From assembly GCF_003019035.1 (NCBI RefSeq), contig NZ_CP027447.1: 64,000 nucleotides of DNA; one strand, 5' to 3'. The position numbers and the translations under genes were made by a program. This stretch comes from Escherichia coli (lineage in GTDB: Bacteria > Pseudomonadota > Gammaproteobacteria > Enterobacterales > Enterobacteriaceae). Below the pieces are notes generated by a model that saw only the letters and a list, made by a program, of their open reading frames with translations, made no database searches and had not been told where the DNA came from. Positions 32,331 to 43,637 of the stretch are shown here, piece by piece; positions within the stretch are counted from its first letter, which is position 1; each line of letters begins with the position of its first letter.

Positions 32331-33092
32331 TTATTTAAAATTCTGATTGTATCTATCAATAAGTATCTCATCATTACATAAATACGTATCAACAAATGAT
32401 TCTATACGAGAAACTGAAATACGCTCAGATGTATCATTAGAACCGTGATTCATAATATAGCAAACAACTGGAGTCTTCATAGCTAATACACTTCTTCCGA
32501 ATGCCAATGAAGATTCTGGATATTTTGTATGGTCTTTTAGTGAAAATAGAAATGTCCCTTTCTCTTCCTGATTTGAACAATCCTTGGCATCTAACTTAGA
32601 TATAAAACAACTACCACAATTTTTATAGAATATCTTTGTAACTCCATCAAGGTAAGCGATCTTCTCCCTGCGGGCATCAAACACATAACCTGTATAAAAT
32701 GCCAGATCATCAGCATCAGGATTTCGGGAAAACATATATTCTACTTGATAAGTGAAATCTTTGGATACCAGATCATCTGCATCAATAAACATGAAATAGT
32801 CACCAACTTTTGCAGTTTCGAGTATTTTTCGACGCGCGACATTTTTTTTTGATGCTTTGTCTGCCATGTAACCATTTTTATCTTCCGGGACGGGATGCCA
32901 GACTTTGATAAACTCAGTCCGTGGATTCTGATATCCACTTATAAACTCAGGAATGTCATGACATGCAACGACAATGCGATAGTCGCCACCCGCCCCCTCA
33001 ATTGACTTGATTGTAGCTTCCAGTCGAACGCAAACTTCATTCCAATCGTTAGAAGTCTGTTTTGCCCTGAGTGGGATTGCATAATGAAACAT
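32331..33092 (-). CDS. Putative glycosyltransferase or capsule-modifying enzyme (DxD motif, FIDADD)
   Basis: 253-aa ORF, AT-rich, between kpsS and kpsT; DADD motif suggests nucleotide-sugar transferase; function inferred only. Confidence 0.45.
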   Translation of the reverse strand: MFHYAIPLRAKQTSNDWNEVCVRLEATIKSIEGAGGDYRIVVACHDIPEFISGYQNPRTEFIKVWHPVPEDKNGYMADKASKKNVARRKILETAKVGDYFMFIDADDLVSKDFTYQVEYMFSRNPDADDLAFYTGYVFDARREKIAYLDGVTKIFYKNCGSCFISKLDAKDCSNQEEKGTFLFSLKDHTKYPESSLAFGRSVLAMKTPVVCYIMNHGSNDTSERISVSRIESFVDTYLCNDEILIDRYNQNFK

Positions 33093-34035: not shown

Positions 34036-36798
34036 CTATATAAAAGCAATTTCTTTACTAAATCCTTTTTTAATAATTTTACAATTTTTCAAGTAATCAT
34101 CGTCTTCGATCCTCCATGTATGAGAATTCGTATTTCCATAACGCATTTGAATAAAGTTATATTTATCTGATGAGTAAATAATGAAGCCATTTTTCTTGCA
34201 TTCTTTGAGGAAATTAGTGTCTTCACCACGGTTTATGCATTCAAACTTAATTTTTTCAAAAACCTCTTTTCTAATTACTAAACTTCCTCCTGAAATGAAA
34301 TCAGAATAACGATTATCTTTTCCTGGTTGCTTAACTGCCATGATGTCTTTAGATTCTACATAGCAAAAATAAGAATCTTTGCCTACAATGTCGGCACCAC
34401 TAAATTTAAAAGCTTGCAAAGCGTCTAATAAATAGTTATCACCATAAAAATCATCATCATCCATCTTGGCAAGATAATCTCCTGAGGCATGAGTAACACC
34501 ATAATTAAGACACTCACCAAGAGTTATATCCTGTGGTAACTGATATACTTTAACATTAGGCATTCCATTTATCTTGTTTTTAACCACATTTATATCAAAA
34601 CTATCATTATTTAATATAAGTAATAACTCTTTATTCACGTGAGATTGTCGATGATAATTATCAAGCATCATATCAATATTATTGGGACGATTAGTACACA
34701 TAATTATTGATACTTTATCATCTTGAATGACCTTATTTTTAACTCCTATAGTCTTTAGAATCTGCTCAAAACGTTGTTGATACGAATGATACCGAATACA
34801 ATGACGAGCGGCCAAATGTCCTAAACGTTCACGTTCAATATCAGACTCAAGCAACCGTTGAACAATAGTTTTCGCTTCGAGTTTGTCTTTAACAATATGT
34901 ACATGTTCACCAAGCATAGCTTTCATACCATCAGAATGAGTTGATACAACTGGTGTACCGCAAGCCAAAATTTCGAAAACCCGACGGGAGAACATAGTTG
35001 GTGAGTCCTGAACAGTGTTGATATTCAGGAATAGCTTGTATTGTCTATAAGCAGTGAGCATCTGTTCATAGTCAAGTGAACCAACTATAAATGGTTGGTA
35101 TTTTTCAGGAAAGATTCGTGATTCTCTATGTTTGGTTGCATGCAGCATTCGGTCGTATATATGCAATTCACGATGTGCTGTTCCATCAAGGACAATTTCT
35201 GTTTGTGCTCGACGAGTATCATGTCCATTATTATACCAACTACCGGCAAAACATACTTCGTAAACTGGAAGTTTTTTATTCTTATCACGAATTGGGTTGT
35301 GGATAGCTGGTTGTGCCGCAAAAGGAAGTGCGTATACTCTATTATGTCCAACACGAGACTTGTATTTTTCTAAGATATTCCCATCAGTTGTGAATATATA
35401 GTCACAATCAGCTGCAACATCAATAAAGACTTCGTAGTTGGTTGGATCCTCCTTATTCCAAAATACTACAGGAATATTCTTGGATTGACAGTATTTGATA
35501 ACTTTGCGAAGTGGATCACCCAAATGTTTTTTATAACTCACCATGGTATATGTCCACTCACCATTATTACCATTCCAAGCTGATTCAAGAAATAACATTA
35601 CTGGGTGTGATTCGTCGATCTCTGATTTCCAATTTTGCTTGGTTAACGGAATAAAGTTTGCCTCATAGCGAAAGCATTCATAAGTAAACTTATCACAGAT
35701 CGTTACAACATTGATATGCTGATTTCGCAAGTGTGCATGTGATTCAAAGACAGGCCAACTAATCTCATTATCATGTTTTACCTCATTATAAACACCAACA
35801 CTTTCAAGCAATTGCTTCTTGACACGACAGTTAAGAGGGGGGTGATCAAATTTGCCTTTACGCTTAGCCGCACGAATCTTTATTAGCTTTTGAGGCAAGG
35901 AAAGAAAACCTTTCAGGCTGCTACGTTTAGTCTCTACCATAGTTTTGCCTAAACGATAGTATAAAGACCTTTCTAGTTTCTGCTTCTCGTAGAGAGCTGT
36001 AGCAAGCTTGTCTTTAAGCTCGTCAATTTTTTGCTTTTGTATTTGTGGTGATTCTGGTAATGAGAGAATTCGCGTCTCGAAAGCTTTTGTCAGCGTTTTT
36101 GCTTTCACTTCAAAGTGTCGTATAATTTCCTCATGGCTTTGGCAATTATCAAGCCTTATTGCATTCACGGGTAAAGTTTCTTCAATGTAGAGTTTAATAG
36201 GTTCAATACGAAGTGAACCTTGCCCTTTAAAACGTAATGCCATACTAAAGTAACGCGCATCAGGCATTGTATCGAATTCAATATGATTAATACCGTTATA
36301 AATAAGTTGATATTTGTGAGTAATTCTTTTATTTTCATCATACTGGATAATAAAAATTGCACATTCAGGTCGATTCTCTCCATATGATGTATTTAATACT
36401 AATCGATACTTGAATCCACCATTGATACGCCAGGAGTTTTTGTCCAATGGCAACCCATTAATATTCATACTGCCAGTTTGTAAATAAAAAGAGTCTCCAT
36501 TTATCAAATCCATTTCTACAAACAAACTTCCATCTGACTCTATATGCAAATGCTTATTACGACTATTATCAGCAGGTAATAACCATTCGGTCGATGATTC
36601 TATATTAGAAAGACCATTGAAAGGTAAAAACGGATAGTTTTGCTCTTTCCATTCTATTTTATTGGCCTTACGTGATAATAGACGAAAAAGTTTTTCGAAA
36701 TGACTATCATAGATTGAAAATGCCACCTGAAGTTGGTTAATTTCATCCCCAGTGTGTAATTTATTTTTTACTTTTTTCTTAGTAAGACGATTTGACAT
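34036..36798 (-). CDS. Large three-domain putative capsule polymerase: N-terminal unknown domain, central CgeB-like (GT1-fold) domain, C-terminal GT2 domain
   Basis: 920-aa ORF; central region paralogous to the 329-aa ORF at 39371..40360 (shared ...VFWNKEDP...FAAQP...SRRVFE...G.P... pattern); C-terminus has GT2 hallmarks (VSIIMCTNRP, DDDDF). Confidence 0.6.
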   Translation of the reverse strand: MSNRLTKKKVKNKLHTGDEINQLQVAFSIYDSHFEKLFRLLSRKANKIEWKEQNYPFLPFNGLSNIESSTEWLLPADNSRNKHLHIESDGSLFVEMDLINGDSFYLQTGSMNINGLPLDKNSWRINGGFKYRLVLNTSYGENRPECAIFIIQYDENKRITHKYQLIYNGINHIEFDTMPDARYFSMALRFKGQGSLRIEPIKLYIEETLPVNAIRLDNCQSHEEIIRHFEVKAKTLTKAFETRILSLPESPQIQKQKIDELKDKLATALYEKQKLERSLYYRLGKTMVETKRSSLKGFLSLPQKLIKIRAAKRKGKFDHPPLNCRVKKQLLESVGVYNEVKHDNEISWPVFESHAHLRNQHINVVTICDKFTYECFRYEANFIPLTKQNWKSEIDESHPVMLFLESAWNGNNGEWTYTMVSYKKHLGDPLRKVIKYCQSKNIPVVFWNKEDPTNYEVFIDVAADCDYIFTTDGNILEKYKSRVGHNRVYALPFAAQPAIHNPIRDKNKKLPVYEVCFAGSWYNNGHDTRRAQTEIVLDGTAHRELHIYDRMLHATKHRESRIFPEKYQPFIVGSLDYEQMLTAYRQYKLFLNINTVQDSPTMFSRRVFEILACGTPVVSTHSDGMKAMLGEHVHIVKDKLEAKTIVQRLLESDIERERLGHLAARHCIRYHSYQQRFEQILKTIGVKNKVIQDDKVSIIMCTNRPNNIDMMLDNYHRQSHVNKELLLILNNDSFDINVVKNKINGMPNVKVYQLPQDITLGECLNYGVTHASGDYLAKMDDDDFYGDNYLLDALQAFKFSGADIVGKDSYFCYVESKDIMAVKQPGKDNRYSDFISGGSLVIRKEVFEKIKFECINRGEDTNFLKECKKNGFIIYSSDKYNFIQMRYGNTNSHTWRIEDDDYLKNCKIIKKGFSKEIAFI

Positions 36799-39370: not shown

Positions 39371-40360
39371 CTAATAAAGTTCAAAATCCCGATTCATCTG
39401 CTGAAGGCGATGATGCCAGGTATGTTGAGATAATACAATTTCTTTTGCGCGTTCCCCCAAGACAGTTCTTTTATTTATGTCTTTTTGCAATTCCAAACAC
39501 CATTCTCGCGCGGATTGACCATTCGCAATTGAAATAATACTATCCTCAAATATACGATTCATAGCTATTGATGGACTGCTGATTATAGAACACCCTGAAG
39601 CACCTAATTCAAAAACCCTCCGTGAAAGCATTGTTGTAGATTTTCTAATTGTATTAAAATTTAGATAGATTTGATATTGAGTGTATGCCTGTGCAACTAA
39701 ATTTAAAGGAATTGATGGTCGACAATATACATGTAAATCATTTGGATAACTACAGTTATTTTTTTTATTCCAAAATCGATCATAAATAACCAACCCACAT
39801 CTTGAAAGTGAGTGTAGAACATCATATTGCATTTGGCTCCTTTCACTAAACTGATTACCATAGTAGCCACCAAAAAATGCAACACCATATTTCCGCTTTA
39901 CTTGAGGAACAGACTTATACCAATGAGGTTGCGCTGCAAACATCAGTACACCTACTGACTGGCACCTGTGGTCTAGTAATGAGTCATATCGATTAATTGA
40001 ATCCGCGTCTGTTGTATATATTATATCAAAAAAAGAAGCTGAATCAGAAAACCTTTCAAAATGGAATGGATCTTCTTTATTCCAAAATACAGTTTTTATT
40101 TTTTTTCTTTTGCAATATTCAACTATTTTCTTTAATTCATTGTTATTATCTGGTTTGTTTTCATAACTTGCTATTTTACCTTGCCAGCTATTCCTATATC
40201 CTCTCCAAGCAGATTCAACAAACAAAAAATCAGGTTTAAACAAGCGTAATTTCCAACGCCAATCAAAGGGAGTTAAAGGCAAAATATCTGCATCTGGAGC
40301 CAAACCATATGTCGTAAACTCATCTGCGATTAATGCAATACAAGGTTTTTTTTTCTTCAA
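39371..40360 (-). CDS. CgeB-like glycosyltransferase-fold protein
   Basis: 329-aa ORF paralogous to the central domain of the 920-aa protein; apparent TTG start followed by an A9 tract. Confidence 0.5.
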   Translation of the reverse strand: MKKKKPCIALIADEFTTYGLAPDADILPLTPFDWRWKLRLFKPDFLFVESAWRGYRNSWQGKIASYENKPDNNNELKKIVEYCKRKKIKTVFWNKEDPFHFERFSDSASFFDIIYTTDADSINRYDSLLDHRCQSVGVLMFAAQPHWYKSVPQVKRKYGVAFFGGYYGNQFSERSQMQYDVLHSLSRCGLVIYDRFWNKKNNCSYPNDLHVYCRPSIPLNLVAQAYTQYQIYLNFNTIRKSTTMLSRRVFELGASGCSIISSPSIAMNRIFEDSIISIANGQSAREWCLELQKDINKRTVLGERAKEIVLSQHTWHHRLQQMNRDFELY

Positions 40361-40729
40361 AATAATTCCCGCTGAATATTATTGAGTTCATACTAACAAA
40401 GAATCATTGATTGAATTTAAAGCATGTTATAAATACACTTTGACATGATTGCATCCAAAGCATCATAATTAAATAAATGTATTATTTTCCAACAAGGTCA
40501 TCTTATATAGATTATTATATATAAATGAGTGATATGGAATTATATTGGAACGAACAGAATGCGACTTAAAACATAACGCATTTGAGCATTAATAAAAATA
40601 TTACTTATTATAACATTAAAAAATACTTTCTTATGCCGTGCCATTATCTTTTAACTAGCACAGTTTTTATTATATTAATATTATTAATATAATAAAATCT
40701 AAACCGTTATTTATTTTATTCACAACAAC

Positions 40730-41728
40730 TTATATACCTAAAATATATTTAACCTTCCTGTACATTGTATCATAACGATCTACATGGCCAGGTTTATTAT
40801 CAAAGTATATGCTATAATCTCGAATATCATCCCCCCTATCAATACATCGTTGTATAAATGATAAAAGCAATGTTGTGTCGTAATGGCATTCATCACTAAT
40901 GGCGTTTTTATATTTATCTCTAAAAATACGATAATTCTCTTCTCTTGCACTATAATAACTATCATTGTGCTTTTTGTCATGATATAAATGAAGAGCTAAA
41001 TCTTTCTGAAGCAATATATCTAAACAATACTCTCCCAAATATTTTCTGAACCCAGTAGTAAATAACGGAGAATGACATGGTTTATCTATCAAAAAATCAG
41101 ATTTTAGTTTTGACAAAAAGTGATGGTTATATAAACGTATCAAAAAATCAAAATCTTCATACCCATGACCTTGAAAGCTTTCATCAAACCCATGTATTTT
41201 TTTATAGCTTTCTGACTTCAAAATTGTAATAGAGGAGGGACTTGCTAAATGTAAAAACTCTTTTCTTGAAAAATCAAAATATCTTTTTTTTAATAACTCT
41301 ACTGATATCTTTTTTTTAATTAATATGTGCGTCCCATATTTTGTCAAATATAAACACGGTAAAATATAGAATGGTTTTACTCCTTTTTGTATTTTATTTT
41401 TATATTTTTCGAATAAAACAACATCAGGATATATATCCACATCAAGCAATATGATAAATTCAGTATCAACTAATTTGAATGCAAAATTTCTTAGCAATGA
41501 AGTATTTATGTATTTATAACTACAATCGTATGAATTGACAATAACATGGTTATATTCACTCAAGGCTTCTATAAATACATGATCGTATTTAGTAAAGCGA
41601 TTTCCGTGACCAAATATAATTTTAAAATTATTTTCCCTAGTTGCTTCGGCAATACTAATTGCTTTCTGAATAATATCTTTAGGTCTGCGTTTTAGGTCTA
41701 TTGGGATTATAGCGGTTAACATTTTCAA
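40730..41728 (-). CDS. Putative GT2-family glycosyltransferase
   Basis: 332-aa ORF with AIIPI...LLDVDIYP and GYEDFDF motifs; extremely AT-rich. Confidence 0.45.
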   Translation of the reverse strand: MKMLTAIIPIDLKRRPKDIIQKAISIAEATRENNFKIIFGHGNRFTKYDHVFIEALSEYNHVIVNSYDCSYKYINTSLLRNFAFKLVDTEFIILLDVDIYPDVVLFEKYKNKIQKGVKPFYILPCLYLTKYGTHILIKKKISVELLKKRYFDFSRKEFLHLASPSSITILKSESYKKIHGFDESFQGHGYEDFDFLIRLYNHHFLSKLKSDFLIDKPCHSPLFTTGFRKYLGEYCLDILLQKDLALHLYHDKKHNDSYYSAREENYRIFRDKYKNAISDECHYDTTLLLSFIQRCIDRGDDIRDYSIYFDNKPGHVDRYDTMYRKVKYILGI

Positions 41729-41822: not shown

Positions 41823-42599
41823 TCATGATGTCAGCATTGCCTCTTCACGCGTTCGGTATAACGCCAGACCGATGAACAGGGTGACCAGAGTGAACATTGC
41901 AAGGTAGTTTAGACTCACGCCTTCGCTGATATAGCCAGGCATAACTGCCTCGCGGCTTAACTCTACGACATGCACTAATGGATTCCAGAGTAGATATGAC
42001 CAGTATTGCTTCGGAATCGAGTGTAGAGGGAACATGATGCAGGAGATGAAATACAGCGGCTTAAGCAGTATCGGCAGGACCTTTTGCATTTCAGGGAAAG
42101 TCTTACCAACGACCATGAATATTAAGCCAACGCCACATGAAAGAATGATTAACAAACTCCAGGTAAGCACAAGTTGTAAAAAGTTTGTTATTTCGAAATA
42201 TTCGCCTGCCATCCAGACAATAAGCATAAGCAATATATAAACAGCAACATAAATCAGTGTCTCAAGCAATGCACGCGCAATGATCGTATCGATGGGTTTT
42301 ACTGGTCGATAATTAAACAGCCCCTGATTCGCTTCAATAGCACCTACAGAACGATTGCTGATACTGCTAAAGATAAAAAAGGGAATCAGGCCATTAAGTA
42401 AAAACACCGGGAATGAGATGTCTGGCATCGTGCGGTGCATAATGTAACCAAAAATGCCCAACAGTATCAGCAAATGCGCAGAGGGTTCGAGAATCGCCCA
42501 CAGATATCCCAGACGGAACTTACCAAAGCGTGTTCGTATTTCTCGTAGAAATAATGCCTCTACGGTGACTTTCTGGACTTCAAATCCACTTCTTGCCAT
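41823..42599 (-). CDS. kpsM: Capsule ABC exporter permease
   Basis: ORF 41823..42659; start MARSGFEVQKVTVEALFLREIRTRFGK; ABC-2 permease. Confidence 0.85.
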   Translation of the reverse strand: MARSGFEVQKVTVEALFLREIRTRFGKFRLGYLWAILEPSAHLLILLGIFGYIMHRTMPDISFPVFLLNGLIPFFIFSSISNRSVGAIEANQGLFNYRPVKPIDTIIARALLETLIYVAVYILLMLIVWMAGEYFEITNFLQLVLTWSLLIILSCGVGLIFMVVGKTFPEMQKVLPILLKPLYFISCIMFPLHSIPKQYWSYLLWNPLVHVVELSREAVMPGYISEGVSLNYLAMFTLVTLFIGLALYRTREEAMLTS

Positions 42600-42630
42600 T
42601 TGATGATGTGATCCTAATCTCTTCAGGTAC

Positions 42631-42642
42631 GCTACCGCCCTT
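42631..42642 (-). promoter_or_regulatory. ops (operon polarity suppressor) / JUMPstart element for RfaH-dependent antitermination
   Basis: Minus-strand sequence GGCGGTAGCGTA about 30 nt upstream of the kpsM start; matches the ops core GGCGGTAG known upstream of kpsM. Confidence 0.6.
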
Positions 42643-43637
42643 GGCTTAACAGCTACCAATACACTGGAGGTAATGCTTATTTGTAACTGGATAAAATTTA
42701 CTCAGACGGTTTGACCTTTTTAATAGCCGCAAAAAATTTCAGCAGAAATTATTTCCGCAGGGATAAATAGATCTATTTCCGTCTCGTTTCTTCTAATCCA
42801 TTCTTCAGGCATGAATGTATTCGGTCTTCTGGTAATTTCAGAAAACTGGCCGTTTTAGAATGTAGAGTTAATTTCTCAGGAAATTATTTTTTGTTCTTAC
42901 TGTTAACTACTTGATTATAATACCCCATATGGATTTTATGCGTAACAATACCTGCAATCTGTTTCAAACCAGAACGCATGCGATTGATTACCAATAAATT
43001 GTTTAGCGAGAAACTATTTCCCTATTTAAAATTCACTCATGTACTTCTTATTTATATCTACAGCACCCTCTTTACAGTCACATTTGTGATTTACATCACA
43101 TTTAAACGGTGTTATTTAAGCCCCATTAATAATTCCGTGAGTAATTATTTTCGTCAATTAAAATATACATCTTGATTATTTTGTGCGTTTATTTTAACCA
43201 GCGTTACAGCCAGCATTATCCCTCAGTAGATATACCTGAGCAGACATTTCTTAAAATCGACGAATAGTTTCCCTGGAAATTATTATGCTTATTTGAAATT
43301 CCCTTTCTGATTATCTCCAGTAATTTTACTAATTTCCAGGCTACACAAAATACAGATCACATAAGAATTATCCTATATGTTTTGACCTATCAATTGTTAC
43401 TCAATGATTTATTACAACTATTAATAATCATAATGTGTCAAAACACTTAAGCATCTTTACAGTCTTAGAAAGGTGTCGATTAACGAAGGCTACATGGTGA
43501 AAAACAGGTTCCTTCAGTGTTACCGAATATTCCGTGGTGGTCTGGAGGGAGATAATTCTTGCTACATCGAAACTCAGCCCGGTGAGCGGGTTTGACAGTT
43601 CCGCACTCACCATTGGGCTAAGGGTTATCAGGTGGGG

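Follow-up and report, generated by a model that had tools for sequence, protein, structure and literature searches.

A run of nine adenines in the coding sense, within the gene for a 253-amino acid glycosyltransferase of an Escherichia coli group-2 capsule locus, varies in length among natural isolates, and this variation is genuine and recurrent. At this short poly-A run the enzyme has thereby been truncated repeatedly in nature, in at least eight independent events. The run is nevertheless probably an incidental hotspot of replication slippage and not a dedicated switch, and its effect is to truncate an accessory capsule enzyme in a mostly one-way manner.

The capsule locus and its terminal glycosyltransferase gene

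The window (the whole stretch of DNA that was analysed, 64,000 nucleotides) is a segment of the E. coli chromosome with a group-2, that is ABC-transporter-dependent, kps capsule locus, and the assignment to group 2 comes from the presence of kpsFEDUCS together with kpsM and kpsT on the flanks of the type-specific genes at the pheV/yghD site. The genes kpsF-E-D-U-C-S are on the plus strand, and the minus strand has, in this order, kpsM, the gene for a GT2_2 glycosyltransferase, that for a CgeB-like glycosyltransferase, wecB, wecC, the gene for a 920-amino acid two-domain glycosyltransferase, kpsT and the gene for the 253-amino acid protein. The kpsM gene (41823-42659, minus strand) is separated from kpsT by ~8 kb with five type-specific region-2 genes, and rearrangements parting kpsM and kpsT were noted for K7 and others in the paper describing kTYPr (PMC13171606).

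From ORF lengths and annotations the locus is K106-like and a sister of K7, the resemblance to K106 being to its 253-amino acid GT-A (K106_7), 920-amino acid product (K106_9) and 379-amino acid 2-epimerase (K106_11) (PMC13171606 supplement). K106 and K7 agree at 100% in genes 10-13 and at 90.8% in gene 9, while gene 7 is without a listed K7 counterpart (PMC13171606); the DNA for the 920-amino acid glycosyltransferase is 92% identical to its K7-type counterpart, where the 90.8% of the catalogue is for protein. The sister, K7-type, locus is present in 49 further complete E. coli genomes, ATCC 8739 among them, and has the same five-gene core, but there kpsT and a DUF6270 gene separate kpsS from the gene for the 920-amino acid glycosyltransferase; the 253-amino acid glycosyltransferase is absent from it, the DUF6270 gene being there instead. 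As the order beside kpsS is kpsS|GT-A-kpsT-GT920 in the window and kpsS|kpsT-DUF6270-GT920 in the sister locus, the kpsT end has been reshuffled between the two types. In Aeromonas a kps-like cluster has a GT-A homologue at the equivalent position and the same gene set, and this match of the type-specific genes suggests that region 2 of the E. coli locus may have been acquired from an Aeromonas-like source. The cluster of Aeromonas bestiarum and related isolates (L038-L040) comprises genes for KpsD, the CgeB-like protein, wecB, wecC, the 920-amino acid glycosyltransferase, a 268-amino acid ORF, an NTP-transferase, GT2_2, GT-A, KpsC and KpsS.

The 253-amino acid product (WP_001401112.1-like; 32331..33092, minus strand) is encoded by the gene at the end of the region 3/2 transcription unit, which is convergent with kpsS, and a Shine-Dalgarno sequence, AAGGA, is 6 nt 5′ of its ATG. 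The initial annotation had placed the run mid-gene in a putative transferase adjoining kpsT, and this holds: kpsT, for the ABC transporter ATP-binding protein (PF00005; 33172..33840, minus strand), is directly upstream in the same orientation, and fold and DXD motif identify the product as a GT-A glycosyltransferase. Its match to PF00535 (GT2) is 17.2 bits, under the gathering cut-off of 23.3. The AlphaFold model (pLDDT 92, pTM 0.90) gives Foldseek matches, at probability 1.00 and E down to 6e-9, to Leptospira 6p61, the fucosyltransferase WrtF, SpsA, the K4 chondroitin polymerase K4CP, PmHS2 and KfiA, all pointing to the Rossmann-like GT-A fold. The DXD metal/nucleotide-sugar motif, DADD (D104-A105-D106-D107; 32772..32783, minus strand), is in columns that are invariant in an alignment of 27 homologous sequences, as is K82, and S-K-K-N is kept in homologues down to ~50% identity. 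By its modelled fold and motif the protein belongs to a divergent GT-A family, and it matches K106_7 in length and annotation.

The gene was found in only 5 of 5,426 complete E. coli genomes. A GT-A homologue, 78-79% identical, is cargo of a P2-like prophage, with the portal gene on one side of it and the replication gene A region on the other (L036 10001-10762), and another at the same level of identity is in Aeromonas phage P05B (OQ680521.1 23486-24244). The absence of the gene from the K7-type sister locus and the phage-borne homologues suggest that its product acts as a self-contained decorating enzyme and not as backbone polymerase; this accessory role, and the phenotype considered below, are read from gene content. 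The prophage and phage cargo also hints at lysogenic conversion of surface polysaccharide.

Length variation of the A9 run and its products

On the plus strand the run consists of exactly nine T's at 32842-32850 (TTTTTTTTT), flanked by A and G. The minus strand over it reads GCA TCA AAA AAA AAT GTC, for A80-S81-K82-K83-N84-V85, so that the A9 covers the third base of the S81 codon (TCA), the AAA codons of K82 and K83, and the two A's that open the N84 codon (AAT). The A9 tract encoding ASKKNV that the initial annotation described is thus there at exactly that length, and its description as a second 9-nt homopolymer is right also, as the window has two 9-mers, at 32842-32850 and 40346-40354.

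The effect of a 1-nt slip is likewise as had been claimed. Computed products are of 116 amino acids for A8 and 97 amino acids for A10, each with native residues 1-83 followed by an out-of-frame tail, so that in both the native sequence stops short of the DXD. The run is in the part encoding a helix, residues 72-91, that is upstream of the DXD, and since the motif is downstream of the run it is lost from the A8 and A10 products alike; a change of +/-1 removes it, as is expected for a simple repeat within the ORF of an SSR phase-variable locus. According to the model the frameshifted products would be without the catalytic and acceptor parts of the GT-A fold. C-terminal restart fragments predicted for A10, from GTG or ATG starts, are absent from the protein collection, and the C-terminal ORF of the A10 allele is called from an MFIDADD start instead.

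Five complete RefSeq genomes have the gene; all are A9, and no homopolymer of at least 7 nt varies among them. A verdict of no variation from these was set aside, the sample being too small and a larger look-up having found slipped alleles. In that look-up the predicted A8 and A10 frameshift products were sought by exact sequence among ~15 billion proteins. The 116-amino acid A8 product is on 21 contigs, a second A8 variant on 2 and the 97-amino acid A10 product on 1, and intact variants sum to ~363 contigs, which makes the slipped share ~6%. The C-terminal companion fragment of A8 is on 28 contigs with A152 and on a single one with T152, the residue of the window allele. Counts by index block are 34 for A8 and 1 for A10, with 587 and 83 for the two main intact alleles. 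Overall A9 is the form in 94-95% of assemblies, the length range is very narrow, and deletions outnumber insertions by ~23:1. These percentages are rough, since the counted contigs and blocks come from NCBI, ENA and Logan assemblies together, possibly of the same isolates or runs, and include clonal outbreaks. A homologous-protein search yielded no short clusters for this glycosyltransferase, as the truncated forms sit inside its 90% cluster.

Among loci for which DNA was fetched, A8 is in 12, A10 in one and A9 in the remainder. An alignment over 17 kb and a tree were built from 30 loci, in which A8 alleles are enriched by design. They fall in two clades ~238 SNPs apart over 12.6 kb, and A8 is in both. 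The sub-haplotypes with A8 number at least eight, and in four haplotypes A8 and A9 members occur together at 0 SNPs over the 12.6 kb; with A10 included, the three lengths are found on haplotypes only 0-1 SNP apart, so that the polymorphism is among close isolates. Fitch parsimony assigns eight changes to the run, seven from A9 to A8 and one from A9 to A10 with A9 ancestral, where a single step suffices for 271 of the 272 variable SNP sites, and the run is by far the most homoplasic character of the locus in the 30-locus tree. A lack of length variation among isolates was the result named in the initial annotation as counting against it; variation there is, with A8 in at least seven independent lineages and A10 in one.

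Should A8 and A10 stem from sequencing or assembly, with homopolymers under-called by ONT, Ion Torrent or 454 and the run in truth invariant, the uniform A9 of the five complete RefSeq genomes would follow, and both the deletion bias and the trend with run length described below would fit under-calling too. Such an origin is very improbable, however, for the 12 A8 loci and the A10 locus have no further indel over 17 kb even though another 9-mer and six 8-mers are included, and this internal homopolymer control is the ground on which an artefact was rejected. Identical A8 contigs were assembled from 3-6 independent samples, with related A8 places clustering as clones; NCBI and Logan assemblies are concordant and most are long-contig and Illumina-style.

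Slippage is not the only way in which the gene is disrupted. In WP4-S18-ESBL-08 (NZ_AP022095.1), one of the five complete genomes, genome comparison reveals a 1336-bp IS3-family element, itself carrying a programmed-frameshift transposase, that interrupts the gene at ~32920..32927, and the resulting 178-amino acid fragment (P0089) is on 6 contigs. IS3 insertion is therefore an alternative, non-slippage route of inactivation.

Replication slippage hotspot or phase-variation switch

Several features of the run are those of an ordinary one. The serine-lysine-lysine-asparagine is conserved in homologues, yet its codons are TCA AAG AAG AAT in the prophage, TCC AAA AAG AAT in another E. coli allele and TCG AAG AAG AAC in Aeromonas, and the uninterrupted A9 thus appears to be a lineage-specific synonymous accident. 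With Lys-Lys-Asn conserved and an AAA:AAG usage of 14:6 in the gene, a run of A8-A9 is an expected by-product. Both 9-mers of the window are inside a block of 30-37% G+C at ~32-43 kb, and dinucleotide-preserving shuffles have a mean of 2.89 9-mers, with two or more in 70 of 100, so that the two of the window are not above chance. Neither maintenance of the run in homologues nor its over-representation is therefore found.

Other A-runs of the locus provide the nearest comparison. The second A9, of the same length (40346..40354, minus strand), is in codons 3-5 of the gene for the CgeB-like glycosyltransferase, in the context TTG AAG AAA AAA AAA CCT, and its A8 allele is on 19 contigs against 375 intact (~5%), close to the share of slipped alleles at the first A9. 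In this allele an upstream ATG (~40391) comes into frame, giving a 339-amino acid protein that starts MNSIIFSGNYFEEKK (P0117, 'CgeB family protein n=17'). A slip there would thus let an ATG take the place of the weak TTG as start codon, with no truncation. The A8 run at 40099-40106, at nt 254 of the CgeB-like gene, has slipped to A7 on 10 contigs and to A9 on 2 (~3%); A7 leads to an immediate TAA stop and a product of 87 amino acids (P0112), and A9 to one of 94 amino acids (P0113), which includes a locus (L029, ~3000) where the gene is no longer called. In the GT2_2 gene the A8 runs at 41284-41291 and 41310-41317 have 7 and 13 slipped contigs, with -1 and +1 alleles, against at least 2,000 intact. 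Taken together the four A8 runs of the locus have 12, 13, 7 and 0 slipped contigs (0 to ~3%), one of the four having none in the collection, and deletions exceed insertions at A8 runs by 28:4. The intact GT2_2 protein, on at least 2,000 contigs, is far commoner than the products of other K106 genes, and this suggests that the GT2_2 gene beside kpsM is common to additional and commoner K-types.

Indel rates in E. coli climb exponentially with run length, as PMC8510543 states at second hand, and the frequency of slipped alleles in the locus, which roughly tracks run length, is as expected from such length dependence. Run length is not the sole determinant, in that the A8 at CgeB nt 254 is at ~3% and two other A8 runs are under 1%. 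Since deletions dominate, and reversion of A8 is an insertion in a shorter run, the step from A8 back to A9 should be much slower than the forward one. In the tree of 30 loci no A8 to A9 revertant is resolvable, and A8 clones are stable across samples.

The heterozygosity of the run, 0.116, may be set against a within-clade pi of 3.1e-4, which makes its rate ~375 times that of an average site. With a per-site mutation rate in E. coli of ~2e-10 per generation, the run would mutate at roughly 1e-7 per generation if both it and the sites are neutral, and this points to a rate that is short of the ~1e-5 or more per generation of high switching.

In what is probably the best explanation, the A9 would stem from the choice of TCA-AAA-AAA-AAT codons for conserved S-K-K-N in an AT-rich, horizontally acquired gene, and during replication the run would sometimes lose one A and rarely gain one, the mechanism of replication slippage itself being inferred. 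The frame would then shift after K83, giving the 116-amino acid (A8) or 97-amino acid (A10) product without DXD or acceptor half, and because the gene is last in its operon the lesion would be non-polar. The likely phenotype would be an altered capsule without one glycosyl decoration, on a K7-like backbone, and not capsule loss, as the gene is a type-specific accessory that the K7-type locus does without and that has homologues on P2-like Aeromonas phages. Slipped alleles originate repeatedly and persist in clones, and they account for ~5-6% of sampled assemblies. That frequency is high for a neutral site, however, and there could be positive selection for loss, from phage or immune pressure, which would bring the run closer to an adaptive contingency mechanism.

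A true contingency locus would go further, with A9 kept for fast and reversible slipped-strand mispairing that turns the glycosyltransferase on and off, so alternating two capsule structures and permitting escape from capsule-specific phages or antibodies. In Neisseria, Haemophilus and Campylobacter, phase variation typically affects surface-polysaccharide glycosyltransferases, and the target here is such an enzyme, encoded at the non-polar end of its operon. The tract-length changes, at least eight of them independent and in natural isolates, make the run the most homoplasic character of the locus, and slippage is the main disruption of the gene, with ~24 contigs against 6 with the IS3 element. 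Such a locus is unlikely all the same. The run is missing from all homologues examined despite identical residues, the other A-runs of the locus act likewise, mismatch repair is intact in E. coli, and the implied rate is 2-5 orders under that of contingency loci. In addition, the large majority of assemblies have the one length, and the deletion bias would slow a return from the clonally stable A8. Rapid reversible phase variation at the A9 is accordingly unlikely, and the suggestion in the initial annotation of a phase-variation switch survives in part: natural length variation and truncation are found, but the run is non-conserved, is no more abundant than chance and is like the other A-runs, and a switch in the strict sense is not supported, given also the ~23:1 excess of deletions, the clonal stability of A8 and the low implied rate.

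Recoding potential, known parallels and consequences

From a recoding perspective, the run includes an in-frame slippery heptamer of the type X_XXY_YYZ, A_AAA_AAA (TC-A AAA AAA-AT). Were this, or the A9 itself, to drive -1 ribosomal frameshifting or slippage by RNA polymerase, tract length would tune the dose of the enzyme: A9 would yield both full-length and 97-amino acid products, and A8 would be leaky, with a -1 shift restoring S-K-K-N-V exactly. The heptamer is in the correct frame for this, -1 frameshifting on C-AAA-AAA was 25-60% in constructs expressed in E. coli (PMC1851650), and leakiness would help account for the persistence of A8 clones. E. coli RNA polymerase slips on runs from 8 A upwards, though on poly(A) the slippage is weak (PMC6260861). 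No stimulatory structure was detected in the 82 nt downstream of the run, folding being no stronger than that of shuffles (z = -0.17), and no SD-like stimulator is in the sequence upstream. Furthermore, neither the run nor the alternative product is kept in homologues. Because there is no downstream stimulatory structure and the run is non-conserved, programmed recoding was rejected as the primary explanation and a dose-tuning recoding site is quite improbable; still, A8 alleles may be leaky.

Some of these elements can be combined. Under pressure from phages or antibodies, slippage at both A9 runs might switch the capsule from the decorated K106 form to an undecorated, K7-like backbone and back, and the A8 'off' state might be partly active through -1 frameshifting on A_AAA_AAA, so that enzyme dose would be graded. 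Contingency of this low grade is also an unlikely reading; if it were true, it would amount to SSR-based capsule phase variation in E. coli.

There are several known systems with which the run preferred here as a slippage hotspot can be compared. In Neisseria meningitidis the poly-C tract of siaD reportedly mediates capsule phase variation through slipped-strand mispairing. Common to both is a short homopolymer within the ORF of a capsule glycosyltransferase, truncation on a +/-1 slip and the occurrence of variants in natural isolates. SiaD, however, is the polymerase, so that the capsule is lost, the switch operates rapidly in both directions, and siaD belongs to a large set of SSR loci in an SSR-rich genome, whereas the E. 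coli tract is poly-A, non-conserved, in an accessory gene and in a host proficient in mismatch repair, with a far lower inferred rate. Closer in outcome are the poly-G loci for capsule and LOS modification in Campylobacter jejuni, where slippage toggles decorating enzymes and the capsule is not abolished; but Campylobacter is without MutS/MutL-type repair and its tracts, of G8-G13, are of several lengths per culture, in contrast to the ~94% of assemblies in which the E. coli tract is of one length. In Klebsiella pneumoniae poly-G frameshifts of rmpA and rmpA2 are known, and there too an enterobacterial capsule-related gene is often frameshifted at a homopolymer in clinical isolates, though the product is a regulator and not a transferase and the poly-G is of 10-11.

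At the level of transcription, slippage at a poly-A run rescues Shigella mxiE. Citrobacter rodentium tssM is similar in that an enterobacterial RNA polymerase acts on an A/T run of 9-11 nt in an ORF and out-of-frame alleles are partly expressed (PMC4256274). The genome is fixed out of frame in those cases and slippage is functional, but the ancestral state of the K106-type locus is the in-frame A9, and recoding has no support from conservation.

The nearest relatives in kind are of the same species and the same class of locus, namely the 'disrupted loci' of kTYPr and the pair K2a/K2ab (PMC13171606). There, the sole difference of 22 database K-loci from their parent locus is that SNPs or short indels have introduced early stop codons, and the K2a and K2ab serotypes were proposed to be set apart by one inserted base in the gene for an acetyltransferase, which is a decorating enzyme (PMC13171606). 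Those are described as fixed between-strain differences, and multi-lineage recurrence at one homopolymer is not reported there (PMC13171606). Literature searches that covered the typing and phase variation of capsules, and slippage, uncovered no description of capsule phase variation through SSRs at kps loci of E. coli. The K106 tract is a well-documented addition to the known K-loci that differ by short indels.

In silico K-typing may consequently divide one K-type into 'new' loci or overlook structural variants, and ~5% of K106-type isolates may show a capsule epitope other than the one that the locus type predicts. Such a mismatch would be relevant to capsule-targeted phages, vaccines and serotyping, and also to phage susceptibility and antigenicity. 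Whether E. coli with working mismatch repair can use slippage at homopolymers to vary its surface is a question for which the run also offers a concrete and cheap test case.

Small lesions of other kinds are frequent in the locus. Over 10.7 kb SCU-301 and the window differ by 2 SNPs and by two indels, one a 1-bp non-homopolymer deletion at window position 36782, at the 5′ end of the gene for the 920-amino acid glycosyltransferase (annotated there as 925 amino acids from a different start), and the other an intergenic change of T6 to T5 at 40618-40623. In GCA_037022785.1 (L023) a further one, a 1-bp deletion at the equivalent of window position 34108 that turns GGATCGAAG into GGAT-GAAG, cuts the same glycosyltransferase from 920 to 902 amino acids.
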